Shown: positions 4,440 to 48,562, numbered from the stretch's first letter. The stretch is DNA of 64,000 nucleotides from a virus (IMGVR_UViG_3300032295_002982:1-64000), one strand, 5' to 3'. Made by a program: numbers and translations. The notes: generated by a model from the sequence alone, not told the origin.

Positions 4440-5639
4440 GTGGCAAAAATATTATGTGTATTATACGATGATCCAGTGAATGGATATCCAACCAGCTATG
4501 CTAGGGACACCATTCCAACCATTTCAGGTTATCCTGATGGTCAGACTGCACCAACACCGCATGCAATTGATTTCACTCCCGGTGAGTTGTTAGGAAGTGT
4601 TACAGGTGCTTTAGGCCTGCGTGATTGGTTGGCCCGCGAAGGTCATGAACTAGTGGTCACCAGCGACAAGGATGGCCCTGACAGTGAATTTGAACGACAC
4701 TTACACGATGCGGAAGTTGTGATCAGTCAGCCGTTTTGGCCTGCCTATCTCACTGCCGAACGCATTGCAAAAGCACCAAAACTAAAATTGGCATTAACTG
4801 CCGGAATTGGTTCAGACCACGTTGACCTACAGGCCGCCATGGAACGTGGTATTACTGTGGCTGAAATCACTTACTGCAACAGCAACAGTGTAGCTGAACA
4901 CATTGTGATGCAGATGCTGAGTCTGGTGAGAAACTATATTCCCAGTTACAAACAAGTTGTGGAAGGCGGTTGGAACATTGCCGACTGTGTGAGTCGCAGC
5001 TATGACATCGAAGGCATGCATGTAGGGACAGTGGCAGCAGGACGTATTGGCCTGCGAGCGCTGCGACTGTTGAAACCGTTTGGTGTTCACCTGCATTACT
5101 ATGATCGCCATCGCTTGCCAGAGTCAGTGGAACAAGAACTCAATCTCACCTGGCACGACACTGTGGCAGATATGTTGCCGCACCTGGACATTGTAACCAT
5201 AAACTGCCCATTGCATCCTGAAACCGAACACTTGTTCAATGATGCCATGATTGCGCGAATGAAACGAGGCAGCTACATTGTGAACACAGCACGTGGCAAG
5301 ATCTGTGATCGCGATGCCATTGCTAGAGCATTGGAGTCAGGTCAACTGGCCGGTTATGCAGGAGATGTATGGTTCCCACAACCAGCACCACAGAATCATC
5401 CCTGGAGAAGCATGCCCTGGCATGGCATGACACCGCACATCAGTGGTACCAGTCTCAGTGCCCAGACACGTTATGCAGCCGGTGTGCGTGAAGTGTTGGA
5501 ATGCTGGTTCGAAGGTCGTCCGTTGCGCAATGAATATCTGGTGGTGCAGGGCGGGCAATTGGCCGGAGTTGGTGCTCACAGCTACAGCAAAGGCAACGCC
5601 ACAGGTGGCAGTGAAGAAGCAGCCAAGTTCCGACGTTGA
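4440..5639 (+). CDS. fdh: NAD-dependent formate dehydrogenase
   Basis: AKILCVLYDDP start, QPFWPAYLT, AGIGSDHVDL, VAAGRIG, NTARG, GDVWFPQP, MTPHISGTSLSAQTRYAAG; AGGAGG RBS. Confidence 0.95.
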   Translation: MAKILCVLYDDPVNGYPTSYARDTIPTISGYPDGQTAPTPHAIDFTPGELLGSVTGALGLRDWLAREGHELVVTSDKDGPDSEFERHLHDAEVVISQPFWPAYLTAERIAKAPKLKLALTAGIGSDHVDLQAAMERGITVAEITYCNSNSVAEHIVMQMLSLVRNYIPSYKQVVEGGWNIADCVSRSYDIEGMHVGTVAAGRIGLRALRLLKPFGVHLHYYDRHRLPESVEQELNLTWHDTVADMLPHLDIVTINCPLHPETEHLFNDAMIARMKRGSYIVNTARGKICDRDAIARALESGQLAGYAGDVWFPQPAPQNHPWRSMPWHGMTPHISGTSLSAQTRYAAGVREVLECWFEGRPLRNEYLVVQGGQLAGVGAHSYSKGNATGGSEEAAKFRR

Positions 5640-5656: not shown

Positions 5657-5685
5657 TTGACATTACATTGTTTGTATTGTAAAAT
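5657..5685 (+). promoter_or_regulatory. sigma70-type promoter (leaderless start predicted at ATG 5692)
   Basis: TTGACA-17-TAAAAT; the A of ATG lies 7 nt after the -10. Confidence 0.85.
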
Positions 5686-5781: not shown

Positions 5782-5806
5782 TTGTTTGAGAATTCAACAG
5801 TTAACG

Positions 5807-5839
5807 AGCCCTGGACCAAAAATCCAGGGCTTTTCATTT
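5807..5839 (+). terminator. Attenuator terminator 1
   Basis: AGCCCTGGA-CCAAAAA-TCCAGGGCT-TTTCATTT. Confidence 0.8.
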
Positions 5840-5850
5840 CAGGGAGAGCA

Positions 5851-6015
5851 ATGACAGAATCAGACATAGCAAAACTAAACGAACGTATTGAACGACAAAA
5901 ATTTGTGTTGGACAAAGAATTATATCAGCAGTTGATTCGTGCCAAACTGGCAAGATTGAACAGTTGGTTTGGTGTTACAAAAACAGCAACAGAGTTGCTA
6001 AAATCGCAAGATTGA
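5851..6015 (+). CDS. Hypothetical protein (54 aa)
   Basis: GGGAG RBS, MTESDIAKLNERIERQK... Confidence 0.6.
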   Translation: MTESDIAKLNERIERQKFVLDKELYQQLIRAKLARLNSWFGVTKTATELLKSQD

Positions 6016-6040
6016 CCAATATTGAATTGTGTAGTAACAT
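6012..6040 (+). promoter_or_regulatory. sigma70-type promoter of the tRNA-Tyr-like gene
   Basis: TTGACC-17-TAACAT. Confidence 0.55.
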
Positions 6041-6048
6041 AGAGTCAA

Positions 6049-6137
6049 GGGTGTTGCCCCGGTCAGCGGTCTGTAAAACCGTCGGCATTGTCAAGATCGG
6101 AAGTTGCCTCGTGGAGCGTTACCATCAGCACCCACCA
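6049..6137 (+). tRNA. Non-canonical tRNA-Tyr(GTA)-like gene, D-armless, 8/4 fold
   Basis: Acceptor GGGTGTTG/CAGCACCC-A-CCA; anticodon arm GCGGT-CTGTAAA-ACCGT; long variable arm; 4-bp T stem GTGG/CCAT. Confidence 0.7.
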
Positions 6138-6145
6138 TGTATGAC

Positions 6146-6174
6146 TTGACTGAAATGATCAAGTCCGCTATACT
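6146..6174 (+). promoter_or_regulatory. sigma70-type promoter
   Basis: TTGACT-17-TATACT. Confidence 0.8.
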
Positions 6175-6964: not shown

Positions 6965-7042
6965 GGCACGTTAGCATAGTTGGCCTAATGCGCTGGCCTG
7001 TCACGCCAGAGACCACGGGTTCGAATCCCGTACGTGTCGCCA
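6965..7042 (+). tRNA. trnD: tRNA-Asp(GTC)
   Basis: Cloverleaf, CT-GTC-AC, G73, CCA. Confidence 0.95.
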
Positions 7043-7063
7043 TTTTTAAGGATAATTATTGAC

Positions 7064-7918
7064 ATGAAAATATCTACACACTCCAACGGTTGGACACAGT
7101 TTGTTGAAGATCTTGATCTTCGCGAAGCCACTGACGAACAGGCACAGACCATAGGTCGTTTGTTGGCCGAACACACCGTGGTTGTGATACGTGGTCAAGA
7201 CTTGACTCCTAGGCAGGAAGTTGAATTTTGTAAAAAAATTGGCAATCTTGAAAGTCTAGAACGCAGAAAGAATGACAAAGGCTTTGACGGATTCATTGTG
7301 CCGGACAGCGACTATCATGTGATGCGAGTTACAGGCGAACTAGATGAACATGGTAGACCTGGCTTGTTTGGTCATGTGAGTGATCTTGACTGGCATGCCA
7401 ATCAAACTGCCAACGAGTGGCGACATCCCATTGTGTGGCTGTATGGTGTCAAAGGCACTGCGGGCAGCCGCACCAGTTGGTTAAACAACATCATGAGCTA
7501 TCAAGATTTGCCACCGGAACTACAGGAAGCCTACAAAGAAATTCGCATGATCAATGGCTACAAGCAAGGCGCCTACAGTGAAGATCACTTTGGCAAACCC
7601 ATTGACATCAATTTTACCTACAAGCCCCGACTGGTACACACAAACTTGGCAGGCAAGACCGGATTGTTTTTTCCCTTCCTGCAGATTCATCAGATCGATG
7701 GCATGACCGAAGATCAAAGTCGTGAATTTATAGAAATGCTGCGAGATCATGTGCTACAAGAAAAATACATGTACCATCATGACTGGCAAGATGGCGACAT
7801 TGTGATCGCTGAACAGTGGTTGGGCATTCACAAACGGTGGAGATGCGAAACCATAGCCACTCGCAGGCTGCATAGAATCTGTTTGGACTTTGCTCATTGT
7901 GGCTTTGACTTGGCTTGA
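7064..7918 (+). CDS. TauD/TfdA-family Fe(II)/2OG dioxygenase
   Basis: HTVVVIRGQDLTP, DWHAN, TSWLN, WQDGDIVI..QW..IH.R; start set at ATG 7064 after AAGGA. Confidence 0.8.
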   Translation: MKISTHSNGWTQFVEDLDLREATDEQAQTIGRLLAEHTVVVIRGQDLTPRQEVEFCKKIGNLESLERRKNDKGFDGFIVPDSDYHVMRVTGELDEHGRPGLFGHVSDLDWHANQTANEWRHPIVWLYGVKGTAGSRTSWLNNIMSYQDLPPELQEAYKEIRMINGYKQGAYSEDHFGKPIDINFTYKPRLVHTNLAGKTGLFFPFLQIHQIDGMTEDQSREFIEMLRDHVLQEKYMYHHDWQDGDIVIAEQWLGIHKRWRCETIATRRLHRICLDFAHCGFDLA

Positions 7919-8654
7919 TTACGCAACGACCAAGGTTTGGCTGCTGCATGTAGCCACTGCGGTCACGGTGTTTTTTATGCCACCTGTGTGGATACTGGTG
8001 GCAATTGTGTTTTACTGGGCAGCATCGTCTATTTTTCAATTGATATTTCATGACTGGATCTGTCATGAATATTGTAGGCCGCGCAACATCTGGATAGAGT
8101 GTGCGATGCTGATGCTGTTTTACGCACATGACAACAATGTAAGAAACAAAAAGAACTATCATGTGTTTCATCATCGTCAATGGCATCATCCTGACCGTGA
8201 TCCTACCTATCGCAAACTACAAGGTGTGAGCCTTGGGCGCTATATCATGGGCCTACACAATCGTCTTGATCTTGGCATTCCCAACAAAGAATTCAGTCTG
8301 CTAGAGCGCAGCAGCCTGGTGCGTTGGTTAGATCCTCACAGTCGCTGGCTTTACTTTGCATGGATTGTGGGTTGTGCCTTGGTGTTGCCATGGACATGGT
8401 TTGTGGTTGTTTGTGTCTGGTATCCTTGGTTGCTGCATGTGGCTTTGTGTTATCATGATTGGCACCTTCATGGACCACAACGTAGACCGGATCGCAATTG
8501 GATGAGCTTGTTGTTTGCACACGGTGCCTGGCATCATGCACATCACGAATCATGGCGTCAAGAACACTATGGACCCGGTGTGTGGCGATGGATCAATCCG
8601 GCCTGGTATGTGCGACACCTGTTGTTTAGAAAAAACTCTGCTCCGGTAGTTTAA
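7890..8654 (+). CDS. Membrane fatty-acid desaturase/hydroxylase-like protein
   Basis: Transmembrane segments plus His boxes HDWICH, HVFHH, HDWHLH, HHAHH; start uncertain; stop lies inside the next tRNA. Confidence 0.7.
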   Translation: MLIVALTWLDYATTKVWLLHVATAVTVFFMPPVWILVAIVFYWAASSIFQLIFHDWICHEYCRPRNIWIECAMLMLFYAHDNNVRNKKNYHVFHHRQWHHPDRDPTYRKLQGVSLGRYIMGLHNRLDLGIPNKEFSLLERSSLVRWLDPHSRWLYFAWIVGCALVLPWTWFVVVCVWYPWLLHVALCYHDWHLHGPQRRPDRNWMSLLFAHGAWHHAHHESWRQEHYGPGVWRWINPAWYVRHLLFRKNSAPVV

Positions 8655-8730
8655 TGGTAAAACAGCGGATTTATATCCCGTAGCGTCAGATAAACGGCCA
8701 ATACAGGTTCAAATCCTGTCCGGAGTACCA
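8640..8730 (+). tRNA. tRNA with TAT anticodon (nominal Ile) and long class-II variable arm
   Basis: GCTCCGG/CCGGAGT-A-CCA; loop TT-TAT-AT with A31-C39 mismatch; V-arm CGT-CAGATAA-ACG. Confidence 0.8.
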
Positions 8731-34476: not shown

Positions 34477-35232
34477 ATCTCTGTCAATCACATGATTGTG
34501 CATGATATCTTCCACAGTGCGTTTGCGAACATGTTTGTTGGGTTCGCCTAGCACAACAATAATATACTCCTGACTGTTGGTTTTGGCCAACATGGCCACA
34601 CAGTAACCAGCCGCTGAGGTGAAGCCGGTTTTGCTGACTTCAATTATGTCAAACTCCATGAGAATTTTTTGATTGGTATTCTGCAACAGAATCTTGCGCA
34701 CTCGTTTTTTGTGCTTGGCTTCAATCATCATTTGCTTTTGATGACTGAGCTGGCGAATCACAGTGTAACGCCCTGCGGCTGCTACTATGCGTCCAACTTC
34801 TTCTGCGGTGCTGACATTGCCGTGGCTGAGTCCGCTGGGATCATTGAAGTTGGTAAACACCAATCCTAGATCCCGAGCTTTGCGATTCATGGCTGCCATG
34901 AATGCGGTACGACCTCCCGGATAATCAGCTGCAATGGCTTCGGCTGCACTGTTGTCACTGCGGATCAACATAGCAGCCATCATGTCTTTGCGACTGGTCC
35001 ATTTTGTTTTGCGGCCATTCGCCATGGGCACACGAGCATAGATATTGCTGTTGTAATCAAGACTGACCATGGCAGTCATCAACTTGCTGATGCTGGCAAT
35101 GGGTCTAGTGACACCTGATGATTCAGCCACAATGATTTGCTGTGTGCTGGTGTTTTGAACCCAAAGAGAAACGTCACGGCAAAGGCCAGGCACTGCTGCC
35201 ACAAGCAGCAGTATAAAAATAATTTTCTTCAT
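34471..35232 (-). CDS. Peptidase S11 (D-Ala-D-Ala carboxy/endopeptidase, PBP7-like)
   Basis: Signal peptide, ASISK (SxxK), SDN, DPSGL, SKTGFT. Confidence 0.9.
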   Translation of the reverse strand: MKKIIFILLLVAAVPGLCRDVSLWVQNTSTQQIIVAESSGVTRPIASISKLMTAMVSLDYNSNIYARVPMANGRKTKWTSRKDMMAAMLIRSDNSAAEAIAADYPGGRTAFMAAMNRKARDLGLVFTNFNDPSGLSHGNVSTAEEVGRIVAAAGRYTVIRQLSHQKQMMIEAKHKKRVRKILLQNTNQKILMEFDIIEVSKTGFTSAAGYCVAMLAKTNSQEYIIVVLGEPNKHVRKRTVEDIMHNHVIDRDL

Positions 35233-36710
35233 GACAGAACCGGTATGTTGTAGAGTTGTTGAAAGCGATCTGCGTCGCTGCGATTGTTGACCATGGGTTC
35301 TCCTTTGATGTTCAGACTAGTATTTAACAACATAGGACAACCAGTAAGCACGTACCATTTTTCTAGCAGTTCTCGTATGCCCGAACCATCTTTAGGTACA
35401 GTCTGTACTCGGCTGGTGCCATCAACATGACATACAGCAGGATACAGATCAGGCCGCCGACAGCGAGCGACTGACTGCATGTAACGGCTATGGCTCCAGC
35501 CAGGGCTGAAATCAAAATACTGATCAGCCATTTCTTCAAGAACCACTGGAGCGAAGGGTCTGAATTTTTGTCTACGTTTGATTGCATTTACACGATCCTT
35601 GATATCTGGACCTCGGGGATCTGCCAAGAGACTGCGGTTCCCCAGAGCACGTGGACCAAACTCAGCACGGCCAGAAGCAACACCAACAATATCACCAACC
35701 ACAAGGTGATCAAGTAAGGGTCCAACCGGATACGGTCCTGAAATATCGTGACCAAGATAAGCATTGCGCCAATTAAGGCGACGCCCATATTGAAGTGCGG
35801 CAGCACCAAGGCTGCTACCAGCATCACCAGGATTAGGCATAATCCAAATGTTTTCAAAATATTCTCCTAGGTTTCTATTGGCAAGACAGTTTAATGCCAC
35901 GCCACCCATGTATACAAGATTTGTGCTGAAGTCAAAAGACTGAGCTCGCTTCATGATCTGTGCTATCAGACGTTCTAACAGTGTTTGGGCCGACGCTGCG
36001 GTGTCAAAGCGATCAAGTGAAATGTTTTCCCAGTTGGACAATCCAACATGCAAATTTTCGCGGAAAGTACAATTTTCCATGCTGTCTATCAACAATCTCT
36101 GTAGACTGCTGGCATAATATTGTTTGCCATAAGCTGCCATGCCCATGGTGATGTATTCGTCCTCGTTGGGTTTGAGTCCCACACTCTTGGTCATTGCACT
36201 ATAGAACAATCCTAGACTGTGTGGATAACGTTGACTCCACAGTCGCTGATATTGTGCATGTCCTCTGCTGTCGTATTCTGCGCCCCAGACTGTAATAGTA
36301 TCCCATTCACCAATAGCGTCAACAACTACCACTGTGGCACGATCATAAGGACTGGTCTGAAACCCTGCTGCTGCGTGACTGAGATGATGACAGTGTGTGC
36401 TGTAACTTGTGCTAGATATGCGTGATCCCAGTTGTTCAGCCAAAATCTTTTTGGTTTGCAGTCGCTTCCATTCAATGCCTTCACCACTGTAGAATCTACG
36501 CAGTTGTTTTTTCCAGGGAGTTTCGTAATAGGCCACATGATCTATGACACAGTGATTCATGACATCATTTAACAATGCATCACAGATGTTGGCGTCATTT
36601 TTTATGCCCGAGTATCGTTCGCTGTGAGCAGCAAACACAATGTCTCCGTGACGGTTTACCACTGCGGCAGCAGCGTCATGAAAACCGGCACTGATACCCA
36701 GGATGTTCAT
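35229..36710 (-). CDS. O-carbamoyltransferase (NodU/CmcH/TobZ family)
   Basis: LGIS.GFHDAAA, HH.SHAA, DAIGE, GGVALNC, EFGPRALGNRS, RQKFRPFAP, LLNTSLN. Confidence 0.95.
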   Translation of the reverse strand: MNILGISAGFHDAAAAVVNRHGDIVFAAHSERYSGIKNDANICDALLNDVMNHCVIDHVAYYETPWKKQLRRFYSGEGIEWKRLQTKKILAEQLGSRISSTSYSTHCHHLSHAAAGFQTSPYDRATVVVVDAIGEWDTITVWGAEYDSRGHAQYQRLWSQRYPHSLGLFYSAMTKSVGLKPNEDEYITMGMAAYGKQYYASSLQRLLIDSMENCTFRENLHVGLSNWENISLDRFDTAASAQTLLERLIAQIMKRAQSFDFSTNLVYMGGVALNCLANRNLGEYFENIWIMPNPGDAGSSLGAAALQYGRRLNWRNAYLGHDISGPYPVGPLLDHLVVGDIVGVASGRAEFGPRALGNRSLLADPRGPDIKDRVNAIKRRQKFRPFAPVVLEEMADQYFDFSPGWSHSRYMQSVARCRRPDLYPAVCHVDGTSRVQTVPKDGSGIRELLEKWYVLTGCPMLLNTSLNIKGEPMVNNRSDADRFQQLYNIPVLS

Positions 36711-41360: not shown

Positions 41361-42567
41361 TTTTATTGTATGCCAACAGCGAAGCCATTTCAGGACTGCT
41401 TGATGCAAAATCTTGTTGACGTTTGCGATCAAGGTCTGCTATTTTCATTTGGGTCATGAAACCATCAGTACTGGCTCCGCGCTGCATGAAATCTACCACG
41501 CTGTTTATATCGTTGCGATACTGATTGGGAATATTGGCCTGAGTCAAATAATCTGCCACTGCGGCCTTGACAGTGTCTGGCAGACAGGCCACACTAAAAT
41601 ACCATGCATCGTGCAGCACGTTCCAATACACAAAATCAAAACCCTGTTGGCTCAACCACTGTGCCACAGTGTCAATATACCTAACGTTGAACACGTTCAC
41701 AGTGGTGCAGGCCTGTAACTGAATATTGCTGTGTTGATCACGAAGCAGTTTAAATCGTGCCACGTTATCAACCACTTCTGACCATACTGCGTTGCTGCGT
41801 TGGTATTCAAATCTTGTGCCAACGTCATCAATGCTGAAGGCAATTTCCACGGTTTTGAAATGCTGCCATATTTCAATGGCTTCGTCAGGGTAGGTTGTGC
41901 CGTTGGTGTTGTAGTGTATTTCCACCTGATGTGCTATACCGCGTTTGACGATGCCGCGCAACATTTCAAAGTGTTCGCGAATCAAAAATGGTTCACCACC
42001 AGTGAATTCAATATAACGAATCTGATCAAGATGCTGATCAATTTCATTCCAAAATTGAGTGTTTTCTCTAGGCCAAGCACCGGCTCGTAACATCTGATAA
42101 GAATAACTTTGCCGTTGTTCTTCACGATTCATGAACTGAAGTTCTTCACTGGCAGACTGTGAACTTGACCAGGGTCCGCAGATTCTACATTTGAGATTGC
42201 AAATGTTTCCCAGTTTTAGATCCAAGAACAGCAATGGTTTGGCATCCAGTGTCCACTCTGTGTGTGGCACAACGTGTTTGAGTCGATCCAGGGTGTGCAT
42301 GCGTTTGCTGGTACGGCCAGCACGTTCTTCGTTCCAGCACTTTCTGCAAGTTTGTGGTTGCTGTCCATCAATGAACTGCTGTCGCAGATTCCGCATGTAA
42401 TCACTGTTTTGAATATCACCAAATTGTGACTGTTTTAGATCAAATTTTTTACCTTGGCCGTCTACAATTTCATCGTCGGCCAGACAACAAGGGCGCACAG
42501 TGCCAATTGGCGAAGCTTCAAGGCTGACCCAGGGTAAAACGCAGAATTTATCGTGTGGTATTTTCAT
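41350..42567 (-). CDS. Radical SAM protein with N-terminal SPASM/twitch domain (2)
   Basis: CVLPW..PCC, CRKC, CNLKCRIC, GGEPF. Confidence 0.92.
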   Translation of the reverse strand: MKIPHDKFCVLPWVSLEASPIGTVRPCCLADDEIVDGQGKKFDLKQSQFGDIQNSDYMRNLRQQFIDGQQPQTCRKCWNEERAGRTSKRMHTLDRLKHVVPHTEWTLDAKPLLFLDLKLGNICNLKCRICGPWSSSQSASEELQFMNREEQRQSYSYQMLRAGAWPRENTQFWNEIDQHLDQIRYIEFTGGEPFLIREHFEMLRGIVKRGIAHQVEIHYNTNGTTYPDEAIEIWQHFKTVEIAFSIDDVGTRFEYQRSNAVWSEVVDNVARFKLLRDQHSNIQLQACTTVNVFNVRYIDTVAQWLSQQGFDFVYWNVLHDAWYFSVACLPDTVKAAVADYLTQANIPNQYRNDINSVVDFMQRGASTDGFMTQMKIADLDRKRQQDFASSSPEMASLLAYNKNAF

Positions 42568-43826
42568 TTCAATGCTGCCAATTCAGGCAAAATATCCAGT
42601 ATGCTTTCATTTCTTATGTTGTCCAGCTCATGTGTTTTTTTCCAAAACTGTGGAATCAACCCGCTGTTGTCAGTGGCGTGCATGAACGTCATGGCTGATT
42701 TGAAACCTTGTGTGGCTCTGCCTAAAGGGTCGCCTGCCTGATCAAGCCATTGCAAATGACTGTGATACACTGAGGCTAGCTGTGATTTATACTGCTCAGG
42801 GGCAATGTCTATGCGGTAGTGGGGCGGATCCTGTAGTATGTTGACATTGAGATCTTGCGCACGAATCAGTCCTTGCTGTACCCAGACACGATGAAACTGC
42901 GGCAGGTGCAAAGCGTTCATGATGCTGAGTGTGGGGCTGATGTAAAAATCAACCTCAGGACAAATGCGCAACATATCTCTGCGATTTTGTTCTACCTGGG
43001 TCCAGTTTGTGCCTTTGCGAATGTATTCGGCACGTGGTCCCATGGCATCTAGACTGGCGCCCACAGCCACTGATTGAAATTTTTTCCAATAATCAAACAC
43101 ACTGCGACCTTTTAGATCTATGTGTGTGAAGTTGGTGTTGTAGATCAATCGCACATCAAAGCGTCCGCGACGCTCTAACTCGTCTAGGATACGATAATGT
43201 TCTTCCATTAACAGGGGTTCGCCACCAGCAAAATAAATTTGCTCCACATAATCAAGATGTGGTTCCAGCTGCGACCACATGTCTGTTGCTGTGCGGCCAG
43301 CATAGTTTAACACAGTGTTCTTTTCTTTCCAGTCACCGCCGGCCAGCCGGGCCTGATCTTGATACCATTGCGAGCTAAAGATATGCCCGCAACTACGACA
43401 ACGTAGGTTACATAGGTTTGAAAAACGAATGTCCCAGTAGATCATTTCAAACGGATTTGCTTCCAGCTTCTTGACATGATGTCCGTGATGTTTGTTGGCA
43501 CTGCGACGACCACTGAAGAAGCCTGCTGCTTCCTGTTCGTAGCAACGACGGCAGGCGTCGCTTTTGACTTCATTCAACATGTTGTGTCTTAACTGCTGCA
43601 TGGGTTCATCACGCCAGATTTCTTCCAGTGTCTGACTGCGACAGTTGCCCACACTGTTGGCCATCTCTGAATGACAGCAGGGATAGGCTTCGCCAGTGGG
43701 ATAGGCATGCAAGTGGATCCAAGGATAGATGCAAAATGTCTTGGATTCTTTCAACAAGAATTCTTCACGAGCAGTGAGATCAACTGGCCGTACTAGATCT
43801 GCGCTGTTGTAGTTATAGTTGGCCAT
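42564..43826 (-). CDS. Radical SAM protein with N-terminal SPASM/twitch domain (3)
   Basis: CIYPW..PCC, CRRC, CNLRCRSC, GGEPL. Confidence 0.92.
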   Translation of the reverse strand: MANYNYNSADLVRPVDLTAREEFLLKESKTFCIYPWIHLHAYPTGEAYPCCHSEMANSVGNCRSQTLEEIWRDEPMQQLRHNMLNEVKSDACRRCYEQEAAGFFSGRRSANKHHGHHVKKLEANPFEMIYWDIRFSNLCNLRCRSCGHIFSSQWYQDQARLAGGDWKEKNTVLNYAGRTATDMWSQLEPHLDYVEQIYFAGGEPLLMEEHYRILDELERRGRFDVRLIYNTNFTHIDLKGRSVFDYWKKFQSVAVGASLDAMGPRAEYIRKGTNWTQVEQNRRDMLRICPEVDFYISPTLSIMNALHLPQFHRVWVQQGLIRAQDLNVNILQDPPHYRIDIAPEQYKSQLASVYHSHLQWLDQAGDPLGRATQGFKSAMTFMHATDNSGLIPQFWKKTHELDNIRNESILDILPELAALK

Positions 43827-45144
43827 ACCATTCTGCAAGGTTGGGGAAAGTGGCTGCAAAGTTCTTGCCGCGACGTTGATCATATTGCTGATAAAACTTG
43901 CGAAAATCCCCACGCAGTGTGGGCAAATCAAAAGCATCACTGTGCGGTGTTTTGACCACGTCAAGATAGTCTATGAGTCTCTGCACATGATTGCGTTCGT
44001 GTTCCTGCAACATGGCATGGTTGTGCCAGGTATCTAACCACTGTTGCAGTCGGTCACGATGCTGCATCCTGATGTGATCTGGTAACACCAAGGGCGATTG
44101 AAAACTAGGGAACCGTAATATGTTGAGTGTGAAGTTGGGAAAGTCCGCACCCCACTGAGACTTCAGTGTCAAGAGATAGGTCAAAAACTCAGGTAGACTT
44201 TCCAAACACAGTGCATTGATAGTGTTCATGACATGCAATCCACGCAAGCGACCACTGCGTATCAACAACATCATGTTGCTTTCCCACTGTTGCCAATCTA
44301 GACCATCACGAATGTATTCAGCCTGTGCAGTCATGCTTTCGTTGCTGGTATATAGATCAAGTTCAATGCCATCACAGGCATCAAGTAAACGTTGTATCTT
44401 GTCAGACTCCATGCTCAAGTTTGAGTTAATGGCCAAGCGTGTGCGACTGCGGCCAGGGTTGTCACGGAACCAATCAATCAATTGCCAGGTATAGCCTGAC
44501 ATCAGGGGTTCACCTCCGGTGATGCGTAGCTCGTCTAGAGTTTGGTGGAGGTCAGATTCCCACCACTGAAAAAACGCTTCCACATACGGATTGCTCTCAC
44601 CGTATTTGTAACGCTGACTACTGTCGTGAGTGTGAGTAAAATGATTGCGACCATCTGATTCCAGGCCCACATAGGCTCCGTGAACACGAATATCTCGAAC
44701 CCAAGTGCTACTAAAAGCAGGATTACAATAAGAGCAAGCCAGTTGGCAAGTGCGATCAAAGGATATCTCAAGTGTTTTAAGATTGAAGTCTTGGTCGGAA
44801 TCAGATGTGGAGGCATGTAGTAGGTCCTTGATAGGGTAAATTTTTGATTTGTACACACGGTCGCTGATGGCGTCGCGACCCATGTCTTCGATTCGCCAGC
44901 AGTATTCGCAACCGGCAGGTCGTTGACCCTGTTGCATCATGTGTCTGTCGCGTTTTTTTTCCGCGGTGTTGTGCAGTAGCCTAGGGTTGGCACGGACTTT
45001 ATCAGTGTCCACCAAATGGGCCGGAGGATGATGGCATGATGTAGTCATGCCGGAACCCAACCAAATGGTAGCATTGTACCATTTGGCTGCACAAAAACTT
45101 GGACTTATTGAGTCCAACTTGGTTTTGAATTCTTGATCAGTCAT
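43813..45144 (-). CDS. Radical SAM protein (4)
   Basis: CAAKW..SCHHP, CEYCW, CQLACSYC, TGGEPL. Confidence 0.92.
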   Translation of the reverse strand: MTDQEFKTKLDSISPSFCAAKWYNATIWLGSGMTTSCHHPPAHLVDTDKVRANPRLLHNTAEKKRDRHMMQQGQRPAGCEYCWRIEDMGRDAISDRVYKSKIYPIKDLLHASTSDSDQDFNLKTLEISFDRTCQLACSYCNPAFSSTWVRDIRVHGAYVGLESDGRNHFTHTHDSSQRYKYGESNPYVEAFFQWWESDLHQTLDELRITGGEPLMSGYTWQLIDWFRDNPGRSRTRLAINSNLSMESDKIQRLLDACDGIELDLYTSNESMTAQAEYIRDGLDWQQWESNMMLLIRSGRLRGLHVMNTINALCLESLPEFLTYLLTLKSQWGADFPNFTLNILRFPSFQSPLVLPDHIRMQHRDRLQQWLDTWHNHAMLQEHERNHVQRLIDYLDVVKTPHSDAFDLPTLRGDFRKFYQQYDQRRGKNFAATFPNLAEWYGQL

Positions 45145-46240
45145 TGAGCCATTCAGCCAACTGTGCAGGCATTGCTGCACGTTGAGCCTGATTGTATTCC
45201 TTTAGATGCTGGTAATTGTACTTACATACATCTAGTGAAGCCTGCAAGAAATCCAGAGCACCCGTACGCACAATGTCAGCTATCACTGCAATGGTACGAT
45301 TGATTCTATCTGTGGGATCGTCTATGAGATCAAAACTTTCATCTATGAGATGATCAAAAGTTCTAAATCCTGCACTGTGTAGATCACGATAATACCCACG
45401 ATTGCTGGCCACAACAAATGGATGCAGCATGATCATGGGCTTCCAAATTTTTTCTGTTCTAAAACTGCAGGGGTAATCGTATATGGTTTCTGTCACCACT
45501 GAGAAACAGGTATCAACATAGGCCTCGGGGTTTATGATGGCATCTCCCCAGGTGTTGTTGAACAAAAAATGTTTGGCGAAACTGTAGCCCTGAACCTTGT
45601 CAAGATTGGGCACCGCTCGTTCAATTTCATATTGGGCTGGTAACAATCTAACTTCTTCAGTGGGCGCAGTTTTTAACACACTGGTCCAGGCAAGATCCAC
45701 ATTGCTTTGCAGATTGGTCCACAGTGCGCGATCCAACAGCCCAAGATCACGCATGCTGTCAATCATGTATTTGCGATGTGGCCTAAGTCTGCCGTTGAGA
45801 AACAAGAAGTCATAAGGTTTAGCGGCTGTGCGTACTCTGTCACTGTGACTGTGTGCTGCTTGATTTTCCAAGAAATCAACAATGTTGGTGAAGTAACAGT
45901 CAACGCTGAGTTTGCGATACCCTGGTTCAAGATCACCTGATGTAATCAAACGTATAGCGCCCGATGCCACTAGTTCAGTGATGCGTAGTCGGCGAAGTTG
46001 CAACAATGCAGTCTGTGAACCTTCTGCGGGATTACAAAAAATAATCCTGCCTGGGTATTGTTGTGCGTAGTCACAGATCAAGTTATGGTTTTCTTTCAAC
46101 TGCACACGACCAATGATGTAGAAACTGTTTGGATCAAAATCTATATCGCGAAACTGCCAGAACGTTTGATCAGCATAGGGCTTCAAAAGATCAAACACTT
46201 CGTCCCACTCATCTACAACTATTCTATGTTTTTCTAGCAT
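45137..46240 (-). CDS. GT-B/GT10-like putative glycosyltransferase, paralog 4
   Basis: FSVVTET..RTEKIWKP...PFV..GFRTFD..DESFD. Confidence 0.6.
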   Translation of the reverse strand: MLEKHRIVVDEWDEVFDLLKPYADQTFWQFRDIDFDPNSFYIIGRVQLKENHNLICDYAQQYPGRIIFCNPAEGSQTALLQLRRLRITELVASGAIRLITSGDLEPGYRKLSVDCYFTNIVDFLENQAAHSHSDRVRTAAKPYDFLFLNGRLRPHRKYMIDSMRDLGLLDRALWTNLQSNVDLAWTSVLKTAPTEEVRLLPAQYEIERAVPNLDKVQGYSFAKHFLFNNTWGDAIINPEAYVDTCFSVVTETIYDYPCSFRTEKIWKPMIMLHPFVVASNRGYYRDLHSAGFRTFDHLIDESFDLIDDPTDRINRTIAVIADIVRTGALDFLQASLDVCKYNYQHLKEYNQAQRAAMPAQLAEWLND

Positions 46241-47636
46241 AATATTCGCACTCTTTCCACCACGCTTGCATTTCAGGAAACGTGGCTAAAAAATCTGTTC
46301 CTCGACGCCGATCATGTTCGGCAAAGAAACGATAAAAATCTGCTTTGTTTTGTTGCAGGTATTCTGCAGGTAATTTTTGCCCGTCACGCATCCAGGCAAT
46401 GTCGCGATCTAGTCGAGTGAGTTCGTAGTCTTTGAATCCTCGGAAAGGTTCTTCCGCAGTTTCAAGTTGCCGCAACATCCAGGCCCAAAGATGTTCCAAT
46501 TTATCAACATAACTTTCTGGCAACAGTTGTAGGCTTTGCCACGTGGGCTGTCGCAATACTGGAGTATCAAACCACACACGTTGATATGTTTCACTGTAGG
46601 TTTTTCGCAGTCCCAGTATGCCAGCAAACAGACTGTCAAGGCTGGTCACACTGAGGTTGTTCATTGTGACAATAAAGGTAATGCTGCTGCATTCAGGAAC
46701 CTCGGTCAAGAACTGATTGACTCGCTCCCACAGTAGATCAAAATCTAGACCGTGCCTGATGTATTCGGCTTTTGGCCCCCAGGCATCAAGACTAACATAC
46801 TGCATGAAATGTTCAATATGTCCTGGCTTACAAAGTTGTTTGACCTTGCTGATATATCTATCCCACAGTCCCTGCTCCACACTGAAGTTGCTGGTGACAT
46901 TGAGATGCAGTTCAGGATTGGGATTTTCCAAAACATAGTCAAACACACGATAGGTATTGCGATCCATGAGTGGTTCGCCACCAGTCATACGAAAATGTTT
47001 TAATTTTGGATACAAAGTTGGCCACCATGCCCAGAATGCTTCTACATATGGGTTATATTCGCGAACAGGTATAGGCTTGCGAGGACCGTTAAAATGACTC
47101 GGGTCATTATGAGGTTCATTAGTAGGGTAGGCGCCCCATCGACGGGCTTCGTCCTCCCACGACGAACTAAACTGTGGACTACAGTAACTACACTTAAGAT
47201 TACAAGCATGATTAAAATTAACTTCCACATAGGAAGGAATAACATCTTCGTCTCCAGTTGAATTTACTATGTTATCAAAATGTTCAGCTGCCCAGGGTTC
47301 TCCAGATCTAAAATGCCTATCGCTGAGTTTGTTGTTGTCCTCCATGGCCCAGCAATAACTGCACTCCGCAGGACGTTGTTGCTGTAACATCAACTGGCGC
47401 TGTTGTTTTTTGTGTTGAGTATTGTGTAGAGCGCTGGGATTGCGTTGAATATCCTCAACGTTGATTCTGTGCAAAGGCGGATGATAACAACTGTTGTTCA
47501 TGCCAGTGGCAAGATGCAGACTCACCTGCTGCCATTTGGCCAAGCACAGCGCCGGTCCAAGATTGTTTTGCATGTTTTCTGCTGAGTACAAAAACTTGCT
47601 TTTTACTCCCACAGTCTCATCGCCAGGATTTTGCAT
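46224..47636 (-). CDS. Radical SAM protein (5)
   Basis: CLAKW..SCYHP, CSYCW, CNLKCSYC, TGGEPL. Confidence 0.92.
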   Translation of the reverse strand: MQNPGDETVGVKSKFLYSAENMQNNLGPALCLAKWQQVSLHLATGMNNSCYHPPLHRINVEDIQRNPSALHNTQHKKQQRQLMLQQQRPAECSYCWAMEDNNKLSDRHFRSGEPWAAEHFDNIVNSTGDEDVIPSYVEVNFNHACNLKCSYCSPQFSSSWEDEARRWGAYPTNEPHNDPSHFNGPRKPIPVREYNPYVEAFWAWWPTLYPKLKHFRMTGGEPLMDRNTYRVFDYVLENPNPELHLNVTSNFSVEQGLWDRYISKVKQLCKPGHIEHFMQYVSLDAWGPKAEYIRHGLDFDLLWERVNQFLTEVPECSSITFIVTMNNLSVTSLDSLFAGILGLRKTYSETYQRVWFDTPVLRQPTWQSLQLLPESYVDKLEHLWAWMLRQLETAEEPFRGFKDYELTRLDRDIAWMRDGQKLPAEYLQQNKADFYRFFAEHDRRRGTDFLATFPEMQAWWKECEYYARKT

Positions 47637-48562
47637 TACCATCCTTCTTGCTGCCTGATCACATCAATCTCTCGTGTCATGATGCCGCGATTGTACCAGT
47701 TGCTGCGGTAATGCTGTTTGAAAAACTCACTGTGTTCAGCTTCAAACAAGCACATAGGCAAATCCAACTGTGTGGCCAAATCCACGCCCACACGATTGGC
47801 CAAGATTCTAGCATCACTAGTGGCCACTGTGAGCCAAAGTTCATGCAACACATCAAAGTCTCTAACCTGTACATGATCCCATGCCGTGAGCATGGTCATG
47901 TATGTGCCTTGTCTGGCTCCGGCTATGGCCCAGATACCGTTGTCAGCATCCATGCCCACATTGTGCCATATGGTGAGATGGTCAAGATTTCTTTGATGTA
48001 CCTGTTGTTTGAAGTCTTCAACAGTGGGTCGACGTCCACGGTTTAGACACATTTTTACACCTTCCCTAAAACCTGCTCGCCAGGCCTGCTCTGGTGTGGC
48101 ATTGGGATAGGTGGTTGAGTAACAGTCATGCATGGCCCAGTATCTAGGGTCAAAACAAAACTCCACGGCTGTGTCATCACTGCCGTCACTGGCTTCGTGA
48201 GTGCGCATGTTCATCACAAAGTCTTGTGTCCAGCAGCTGATGCCACCGTTGCCATACATCAATCCGTTGATGTGATTACGACTCCGCCAGCGAAATACGC
48301 AATCGCGGTTAGTGTCATCCAGAACGAGCTGTTGGTTAAAAAACTCAGCGTCAGGAATGTTATCACCATCAACAAGCACAAAGCGATCAGTGGTCGACGC
48401 CATCGCTGCCGCTTTGTGAGCGGCGTCAGACCCCGCAACACCATCCACTCGTCGTGCCCAGGGTACCATGTTCCGAATACGTGCCCAATTTTCCTCAGCA
48501 TTAGGTTCATCATAGGTCAAAAATATACAATCAAGGTCAGCTATATCAATCTGTTTGGTCAC
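47636..48562 (-). CDS. GT-A-like putative glycosyltransferase
   Basis: IFLTYDEP, VLVDGDN (DxD), GNGG, AWRAGFREGVKM. Confidence 0.7.
   Translation of the reverse strand: MTKQIDIADLDCIFLTYDEPNAEENWARIRNMVPWARRVDGVAGSDAAHKAAAMASTTDRFVLVDGDNIPDAEFFNQQLVLDDTNRDCVFRWRSRNHINGLMYGNGGISCWTQDFVMNMRTHEASDGSDDTAVEFCFDPRYWAMHDCYSTTYPNATPEQAWRAGFREGVKMCLNRGRRPTVEDFKQQVHQRNLDHLTIWHNVGMDADNGIWAIAGARQGTYMTMLTAWDHVQVRDFDVLHELWLTVATSDARILANRVGVDLATQLDLPMCLFEAEHSEFFKQHYRSNWYNRGIMTREIDVIRQQEGW

Follow-up and report, generated by a model that had tools for sequence, protein, structure and literature searches.

To our knowledge, all cytoplasmic tRNAs have been regarded as cloverleaves. Departures from this plan are known to consist in altered arm lengths, as in tRNA-Sec and the allo-tRNAs, or in the loss of arms, as in mitochondria. 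Outside the tRNAs proper, the tRNA-like element of the plant virus BMV accepts tyrosine. In phage tRNA clusters, (8/4) tRNA-Ser and tRNA-His have been reported (Mukai et al. 2017, PMC5389517); neither a Tyr species nor a pseudoknotted core is mentioned in that work or in the review PMC7609411. Phage tRNA-Tyr genes are also known from studies of bacterial defence. Septu and retron-Eco7 PtuAB deplete tRNA-Tyr by cleavage in the variable loop, phage tRNA-Tyr genes counter these systems, and the tRNA-Tyr of phage T5 is reported to resist cleavage via a distinctive variable loop (PMC13096335, PMC11555353). In full-text searches of the literature and in a 2020 review of non-canonical tRNAs, no description was found of a pseudoknotted bacterial or phage tRNA without a D hairpin.

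The gene analysed here lies at positions 6049 to 6137 of a 64,000-nucleotide stretch of viral DNA, referred to as the window, and specifies an RNA of 89 bases on the plus strand within a phage tRNA array (Table 1). In the original prediction, made from the sequence alone, it was taken for a D-armless tRNA-Tyr-like RNA with an 8-bp acceptor stem, a 4-bp T stem whose loop departs from TTCRA, a normal GTA anticodon arm, A73 with an encoded CCA, and only 9 nt in place of the D arm, and every sequence feature named there was found in its place. Compared with an ordinary tRNA, two of the standard parts are present, an acceptor stem with discriminator and 3' CCA, though of 8 bp instead of 7, and an anticodon arm with a 5-bp stem, a 7-nt loop, U33, a purine at position 37 and the anticodon GUA. 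The other two are not. Instead of a local hairpin with G18-G19, just the 9-nt segment (6057-6065) is located between the acceptor and anticodon stems, and it pairs with 6095-6100. Instead of a 5-bp stem with a T54-Psi55-C56-R57-A58 loop, the T arm has 4 bp and a loop with A, G and T at positions 54, 55 and 58, respectively, in which only the equivalents of C56 and R57 are retained.

Two of the proposed pairings needed adjustment. The GGCA/TGCC stem suggested for the variable arm is present, but its fourth pair (6087/6105) is not conserved in the family, and the pairing suggested between 6059-6063 and 6096-6100 is real but comprises 6 bp rather than 5, as C6064-G6095 has to be added. A promoter of its own could not be upheld for the gene: the site concerned is a mere consensus match that is not conserved, relatives have unrelated upstream flanks, and in some of these the element comes directly after another tRNA gene. 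Four promoter-like sites occur in the region compared to 2.0 +/- 1.3 in shuffled sequences. Stronger promoter-like sites were noted at 5657-5685 (11/12 matches), upstream of a terminator-like hairpin at 5806-5832, and at 6146-6174 (10/12 matches), between the element and the gene for tRNA-Glu.

Table 1. Predicted parts of the tRNA-Tyr-like gene and the adjacent promoter-like site (window positions)
Feature	Position	Strand	Remarks
Promoter-like site, weak	6012-6040	+	9/12 consensus matches
Acceptor stem, 5' strand	6049-6056	+	8 nt; partner 6126-6133; 8 bp including one U.G pair (6054/6128)
Connector CC, acceptor stem to helix X	6057-6058	+	2 nt
Helix X, 5' strand (D-stem substitute)	6059-6064	+	Partner 6095-6100; 6 bp
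A6065 opposite C6083	6065	+	Equivalent of 26.44; joins helix X to anticodon stem, no unpaired base on 5' strand
Anticodon arm	6066-6082	+	5-bp stem 6066-6070/6078-6082; 7-nt loop 6071-6077; GTA 6073-6075; U33, A36-A37-A38
V stem, 5' strand	6084-6087	+	Partner 6105-6108; crosses helix X (pseudoknot)
Variable loop L2, V stem to helix X 3' strand	6088-6094	+	Length and sequence differ among relatives; tends to be A-rich
Helix X, 3' strand, within the 'loop' of the V arm	6095-6100	+	Partner 6059-6064
Conserved connector L3, AAGT	6101-6104	+	After helix X 3' strand
V stem, 3' strand	6105-6108	+	Partner 6084-6087
T arm	6111-6125	+	4-bp stem 6111-6114/6122-6125; 7-nt loop 6115-6121
Acceptor stem, 3' strand	6126-6133	+	Partner 6049-6056; same covariation evidence as 5' strand
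Discriminator A73 and encoded CCA	6134 / 6135-6137	+	A73 is A6134

As had been anticipated, tRNA finders do not recognize the gene. ARAGORN made no call at 6049-6137 in standard, relaxed (-ps80) or mitochondrial mode, and the Rfam tRNA model RF00005 gave no match there even at E<=10; the same model scores the neighboring tRNA-Glu gene with 66.6 bits. The Rfam Tymo_tRNA-like model produced a weak match to tRNA-Glu only. In the window, ARAGORN detected 27 other tRNAs for 19 amino acids, none of them for Tyr, and the same 27 were obtained with the whole record of 84,265 bp. The claim that the element is the sole Tyr tRNA of an array covering the other amino acids is consistent with these results. 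The minimum-energy fold of the single sequence is unremarkable (z -1.2), lacks conservation, and contains none of the proposed helices except the acceptor stem. The case for the structure therefore rests on the comparison with relatives.

Relatives were collected with several sequence patterns. An exact search of IMG/VR for the segment comprising anticodon and V stem yielded five contigs, in which an identity of 90-97% begins and ends exactly at the proposed RNA ends, the flanks being unrelated. A pattern for T arm and acceptor with the anticodon left free detected 49 loci, and a looser one with three short loops fixed at least 120. A pattern describing only the 5' half gave 97 hits, of which 94 have the same connector and T loop, two have a single-base difference in the T loop, and one is cut by the contig end. 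After a structural filter, the working set consisted of 86 distinct sequences from 138 loci (at least 138 in total), with RNA lengths of 86-93 nt, on contigs of a few kb (about 5) to 365 kb that represent many phage lineages including jumbo phages. The condition named at the outset for a refutation, a lack of conservation across related phages, is clearly not fulfilled. In 50,697 phage records of GenBank, blastn searches with three family members revealed only 20-nt matches to the anticodon arms of ordinary tRNA-Tyr genes. In most of the patterns, the sequence of the anticodon loop, connector or T loop was prescribed, and the invariance of these parts is therefore partly by construction; they were left free only in the T-arm/acceptor scan (anticodon) and in the 5'-half-only scan. 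It should also be considered that related sequences are not independent samples.

Loci were also compared by synteny via the neighboring formate-dehydrogenase-like gene, whose protein is 85-96% identical, and the loci obtained in this way lack the element. In the phage contigs L003 (7176-7559), L004 (4350-4733), L005 (7176-7559) and L009 (7180-7665), a tmRNA gene with a tag ending in FALAA starts from the end of the formate-dehydrogenase-like gene. In the window, this gene (4440-5639) is followed at the corresponding place by a short leader and the tRNA array. These arrangements show that the junction after the formate-dehydrogenase-like gene is a site of mosaic exchange.

For the evaluation of the fold, tool-based counts were taken from alignment A4, which has no gaps and contains 17 sequences belonging to the same length class as the window's copy, and family-wide counts for the 86 sequences were obtained by our own anchored parsing. 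Alignments produced with MAFFT (A3) or with a model (A5 and A6) were set aside, since length variants have the 3' strand of helix X in the wrong columns there. In A4, the proposed structure including the V stem has 97.2-97.5% of its cells paired, against 35-56% after a shift of the 3' partners by one to three columns. Fourteen pairs show changes on both sides, and none of 500 shuffles reached any of the observed measures. From the alignment alone, RNAalifold recovered the 8-bp acceptor stem, the anticodon stem, the 4-bp T stem and helix X, the latter as columns 11-16 with 47-52, which correspond to 6059-6064 with 6095-6100 of the window.

All five helices covary across the relatives. In the acceptor stem, 98.5% of the cells are paired and four of the eight pairs have two-sided changes (A4), and among the 86 sequences pairing amounts to 97-100% per position. 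The T stem is 100% paired with three covarying pairs (A4). The anticodon stem covaries as well, its fifth pair being U-A in 45 and A-U in 40 sequences and its first pair occurring in six types. The evidence that bears on the pseudoknot comes from the two remaining helices. Helix X, 99% paired in A4, exists in 39 distinct versions and is fully paired in 80 of the 86 sequences, compared to 5.8% when strands are swapped between sequences. Its sixth pair is C-G in 65 and U-A in 16 of them, and L012 carries two compensatory changes relative to the window. For the V stem, columns 36-38 with 58-60 are 100% paired with one covarying pair (A4); in the whole set, 26 complementary strand combinations are found and every one of the 86 sequences forms at least 3 bp, compared to 43.7% of the cross-sequence controls. 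A local hairpin (CTC/GAG type) involving the 5' strand of the V stem was considered and rejected; it is possible in one subgroup, but the ACCT-type sister variants cannot form it and keep the distal pairing. As helix X and the V stem cross each other, the fold is a pseudoknot. The suggestion that the remnant of the D region pairs with the V loop is borne out by these data, and so is the structural part of the idea that the core is rebuilt by a pseudoknot. A fold without a D hairpin and with a pseudoknot is shown by this covariation.

Besides the helices, several short segments are strongly conserved. The anticodon loop was identical in all 49 loci found with the pattern that did not specify it, and it equals that of a host cloverleaf tRNA-Tyr. 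The T loop is the same in 84 of the 86 sequences, the two others differing at the first base, and the connector AAGT was kept in 94 of the 97 matches of the 5'-half-only scan. A73 is present in 85 and ACCA in 79 of the 86 sequences. More variable is the connector between acceptor stem and helix X, which is CC in 56 of 86 and AT, TT, TC or AC in the remainder. At the junction of helix X and the anticodon stem, the equivalent of 6065/6083 is G.U in 63 and A.C in 15 of 86, the window having A.C; we infer that these are isosteric wobble pairs. A joint change was noticed for columns 9-10 and 61-62 (window 6057-6058 and 6109-6110): the second connector base and the base preceding the T stem are C with C in most sequences and T with A in the AT and TT groups. 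Either a tertiary contact or mere common descent may underlie this.

A covariance model of the family assigned 102.4 bits (E 2.9e-25) to the window's copy, 54-108 bits to the members, with one strong match per array, and at most 25.5 bits to ordinary tRNAs. The match of the window's copy to the family is far beyond chance. In the arrays searched with the model, no paralogues with other anticodons scored above 26 bits. A decaying tRNA-Tyr pseudogene or a tRNA-like fold arising by chance would agree with the rejection by tRNA finders and with the single-sequence z of -1.2, and a few bacterial copies, L288-L290, are truly decayed in their 3' halves. Neither would account for the 86 different intact versions, in which compensatory changes affect five helices, conservation ends sharply and the functional loops are invariant, nor for the occurrence in several bacterial phyla and in phages ranging from 5 to 365 kb. 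The covariation refutes this explanation, and practically no weight is left for it.

The position of the element within tRNA arrays is informative with respect to its function. The nearest tRNA gene is on the same strand in all 136 of 136 loci, at a median distance of 10 nt. Of the 138 loci, 58-98 contain a tRNA for any given one of the other 19 amino acids and only two contain a cloverleaf tRNA-Tyr, and the arrays L022 and L108 are those harboring both kinds of Tyr gene. All 38 arrays with tRNAs for at least 15 amino acids are devoid of a cloverleaf tRNA-Tyr, and in eight of these, including that of the window, nothing else is missing. For the window, a cloverleaf tRNA-Tyr elsewhere in the same phage is not excluded, since the record is only 21% complete. 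For this reason, five relatives rated 91-100% complete by CheckV were checked. A pattern of anticodon loop plus TΨC, which detects three known cloverleaf Tyr genes, gave no hit in the five genomes. Two of them, rated 100% complete (357.6 and 364.6 kb), contain 27-28 tRNAs for exactly 19 amino acids, only Tyr missing, and one copy of the element each; this census was performed with ARAGORN on the regions holding all Rfam tRNA hits. The context thus supports the assumption that the element is a Tyr tRNA, with cloverleaf tRNA-Tyr almost mutually exclusive (2/138) and the set completed to 20 in two complete genomes. No TyrRS-family gene was detected in the window's record or in the five genomes of 91-100% completeness, so that charging would be by the host enzyme. 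Aminoacylation with tyrosine and decoding of UAY are inferred, with only indirect support from exclusivity and set completion.

Further unusual genes were observed in these arrays. ARAGORN reported a 'tRNA-Ile(tat)' of 91-95 nt at 8640-8730 of the window; its anticodon stem has an A.C mismatch, and its variable region is long and poorly paired. Others are located in L012 (974-1068), L014 (166-260), L180 (3226-3317), L228 (6685-6776) and L150 (579-670). It accompanies the knotted Tyr gene in 31 of the 138 family loci, bacterial arrays included, and may be a second non-standard tRNA of these arrays. Suppressor-type tRNAs were also predicted, one with the anticodon tta ('tRNA-Stop' by ARAGORN) on a Verrucomicrobiales contig (L168, 458-533) and one with a cta anticodon ('tRNA-Pyl') in the array of the complete 364.6-kb phage (G153; L294-L296). 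The tta and cta tRNAs are a hint that some of these phages recode stop codons. The window's record also contains unusual auxiliary genes, located both between the tRNA genes and outside their array (7034-7918, 35229-36710 and 42564-47642), which specify a TauD-family dioxygenase, a Nol-type carbamoyltransferase and two radical-SAM-like proteins.

The element is not restricted to phages. In a prokaryote scan with one genome per species, it was found, among the matches listed, in tRNA arrays of assemblies labelled Verrucomicrobiota, Limnocylindrales, Lachnospiraceae, Bacteroidales and Bacilli; gut-type bacterial copies lack an encoded CCA. A closed Verrucomicrobiae chromosome of 5.9 Mb harbors one normal, dispersed tRNA-Tyr gene and, in addition, two clustered accessory arrays of lower-scoring tRNAs with one element each. 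The possibility that the element is the chromosomal tRNA-Tyr of Verrucomicrobiota was rejected on the basis of this arrangement. The second copy of this chromosome (L291, 5447-5536; G001, 2434946-2435035) has A for G at the equivalent of R57 and AAGA for AAGT, so the 'invariant' T loop and connector tolerate purine and T/A changes at these positions. In the order to which this organism belongs, 21 of the 151 species genomes searched gave matches, three of them with broken 3' halves. These decayed copies, L288 (66-160), L289 (65-156) and L290 (63-157) from the Verrucomicrobiota genomes G055, G047 and G074, retain the 5' half, the anticodon loop and helix X, but have insertions in the T loop and a broken 3' strand of the acceptor stem; they score 28.7-38.4 bits compared to more than 54 for intact copies. 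The element is cargo of mobile arrays and not a core tRNA of a lineage, and the host with which it coexists has a TyrRS that serves a cloverleaf tRNA-Tyr.

Taken together, we favor the view that the gene specifies a working tRNA-Tyr with a pseudoknotted core, charged by the host, with a probability of roughly 75%; the fold, its conservation and its role in the genome are shown by the comparisons above, and expression, processing, charging, decoding, elbow contacts and any benefit against defence are inferred. The RNA would be cut out of the array transcript as its neighbors are. Its acceptor stem of 8 bp would stack on the T stem of 4 bp to give the usual 12-bp branch read by EF-Tu. The second arm is envisaged as a continuous stack in which a single non-Watson-Crick pair is placed between helix X (6 bp) and the 5-bp anticodon stem. 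Not a D hairpin but the loop of the variable arm, behind the anticodon arm, would contribute the 3' strand of helix X, resulting in an H-type pseudoknot with the anticodon arm inside its first loop. The connector after helix X and the T loop, both invariant, probably form the elbow in place of the D and T loops; for the connector AAGT, this role is inferred only. Host TyrRS would charge the RNA via A73, G1-C72, G34/U35 and the long variable arm, and UAY codons would be read. While the stems drift, A73-CCA, G1-C72, U33, GUA and A36-A38 remain fixed in the 86 sequences, and A36-A38 next to the anticodon provide the sequence context for modification of position 37. Two observations speak against a working tRNA: T54-Psi55 and G18-G19 are missing for the elbow on which RNase P, EF-Tu and the ribosome depend, and the stack of D-type helix and anticodon arm has 12 layers instead of about 10.

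A GUA tRNA that works but is charged with another amino acid, for example by SerRS or LeuRS via the long variable arm, would recode UAY. A73, G1-C72 and G34-U35 are, as generally known, the identity elements of bacterial TyrRS, which argues against this. SerRS normally uses G73, and LeuRS depends on elements of the D loop and core that are absent in the knotted tRNA. Moreover, ordinary Ser and Leu tRNAs are already contained in the arrays, and replacing Tyr throughout the proteome would be very costly. Such mischarging is considered highly improbable, even if an 8/4 branch with a long variable arm is the plan of allo-tRNAs and tRNA-Sec, which SerRS accepts regardless of the anticodon (PMC5389517), and even if suppressor-type tRNAs occur in the related arrays mentioned above (L168 with tta, G153 with cta).

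A look-alike of tRNA-Tyr that does not decode also has to be taken into account. It could serve as a decoy or sponge for defence nucleases directed against tRNA-Tyr, for TyrRS or for another tRNA-binding factor, and thereby protect the host's tRNA-Tyr. The depletion of tRNA-Tyr by Septu and retron-Eco7 PtuAB, countered by phage tRNA-Tyr genes (PMC13096335, PMC11555353), would be in line with such a role. The T loop without TΨC and the missing D loop could impair use by the ribosome, and bacterial genomes with the element retain a normal tRNA-Tyr. A decoy has no need to exclude a cloverleaf tRNA-Tyr, yet arrays with the 19 other amino acids miss exactly Tyr. Features of a translating tRNA are retained as well, namely the 12-bp acceptor/T branch, A73-CCA, U33 and A36-A38 beside the invariant anticodon. 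In addition, the remodelled part is the plain variable hairpin cut by the known nucleases, which fits resistance better than bait. A decoy is not excluded, but it is less parsimonious than a working tRNA-Tyr and in our opinion unlikely.

For a working tRNA-Tyr, the question arises why such a design exists, and escape from host nucleases directed against the variable arm of tRNA-Tyr is our preferred guess. A variable loop buried in a D-type helix might be resistant to cleavage by nucleases of the Septu/retron-Eco7 PtuAB type while the RNA could still be charged by host TyrRS and used by the ribosome. Locking the variable loop into a helix would plausibly be a further step in the direction taken by the T5 tRNA-Tyr. 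This anti-defence function is put forward tentatively, as a possibility with the odds still against it. If true, the element would represent the first elongator tRNA outside organelles with a pseudoknot instead of a cloverleaf, and at the same time a structural way of escaping immunity that is disseminated with mobile tRNA arrays. It would offer a direct test case for a change of tRNA shape as a phage answer to tRNA-cleaving defences. If the RNA translates, this would show that an L shape acceptable to RNase P, TyrRS, EF-Tu and the ribosome can be built from a pseudoknotted topology. Standard annotation would then under-count tRNAs, and arrays that may have all 20 would be reported as Tyr-less. 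The element may also be regarded as a natural scaffold for the engineering of orthogonal tRNAs.

Comparisons with known RNAs revealed partial similarities to four groups, of which class II tRNA-Tyr and the (8/4) tRNAs come closest, the other two having no more than single traits in common with the element. With cloverleaf genes for class II tRNA-Tyr(GUA) (RF00005; L273 from a Verrucomicrobiae chromosome and the phage genes L001, L002 and L022), the element shares G1-C72, A73, CCA, the 7-nt anticodon loop, the 5-bp anticodon stem, a stem at the variable position and the slot in the array. Unlike these, it has no D hairpin with G18-G19, an 8/4 instead of a 7/5 branch, no T54-Psi55, and a pseudoknot via the variable loop.

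Common to the element and the (8/4) tRNAs, allo-tRNAs and bacterial tRNA-Sec are the 12-bp branch of 8/4 type, here with both stems covarying, a 6-bp D-type helix and a long variable arm. From the 12 layers of helix X and anticodon arm and the 8+4 bp branch, the proportions of tRNA-Sec and allo-tRNAs are inferred (PMC5389517, PMC7609411). These RNAs retain a D hairpin in a nested cloverleaf and Ser, His, Cys or Sec identity (PMC5389517, PMC7609411), whereas in the element the anticodon arm and one half of the V stem lie between the two strands of the 6-bp D-type helix. Judged by sequence, such an identity does not apply either, with a GUA anticodon in all members and A73 in nearly all, charging itself being inferred.

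D-armless mitochondrial tRNAs, such as nematode and metazoan mt-tRNA-Ser (PMC7609411), likewise have no D hairpin and only a short segment between acceptor and anticodon stems. They are shortened, with a flexible unpaired connector and without a long variable arm; the element, at 86-93 nt, has a paired 6-bp strand at this place, and the high proportion of fully paired helices X (80/86) does not agree with an unpaired connector. Finally, mimicry of tRNA by means of a pseudoknot is also known from other viral or bacterial RNAs, namely the tRNA-like structures of the plant viruses TYMV and BMV and the corresponding domain of tmRNA. There, the pseudoknot builds the acceptor arm, at the 3' ends of mRNAs or in tmRNA, without a decoding anticodon arm, whereas in the element the acceptor is an ordinary end-to-end helix, the pseudoknot resides in the core, and the gene is part of an array in a DNA phage.
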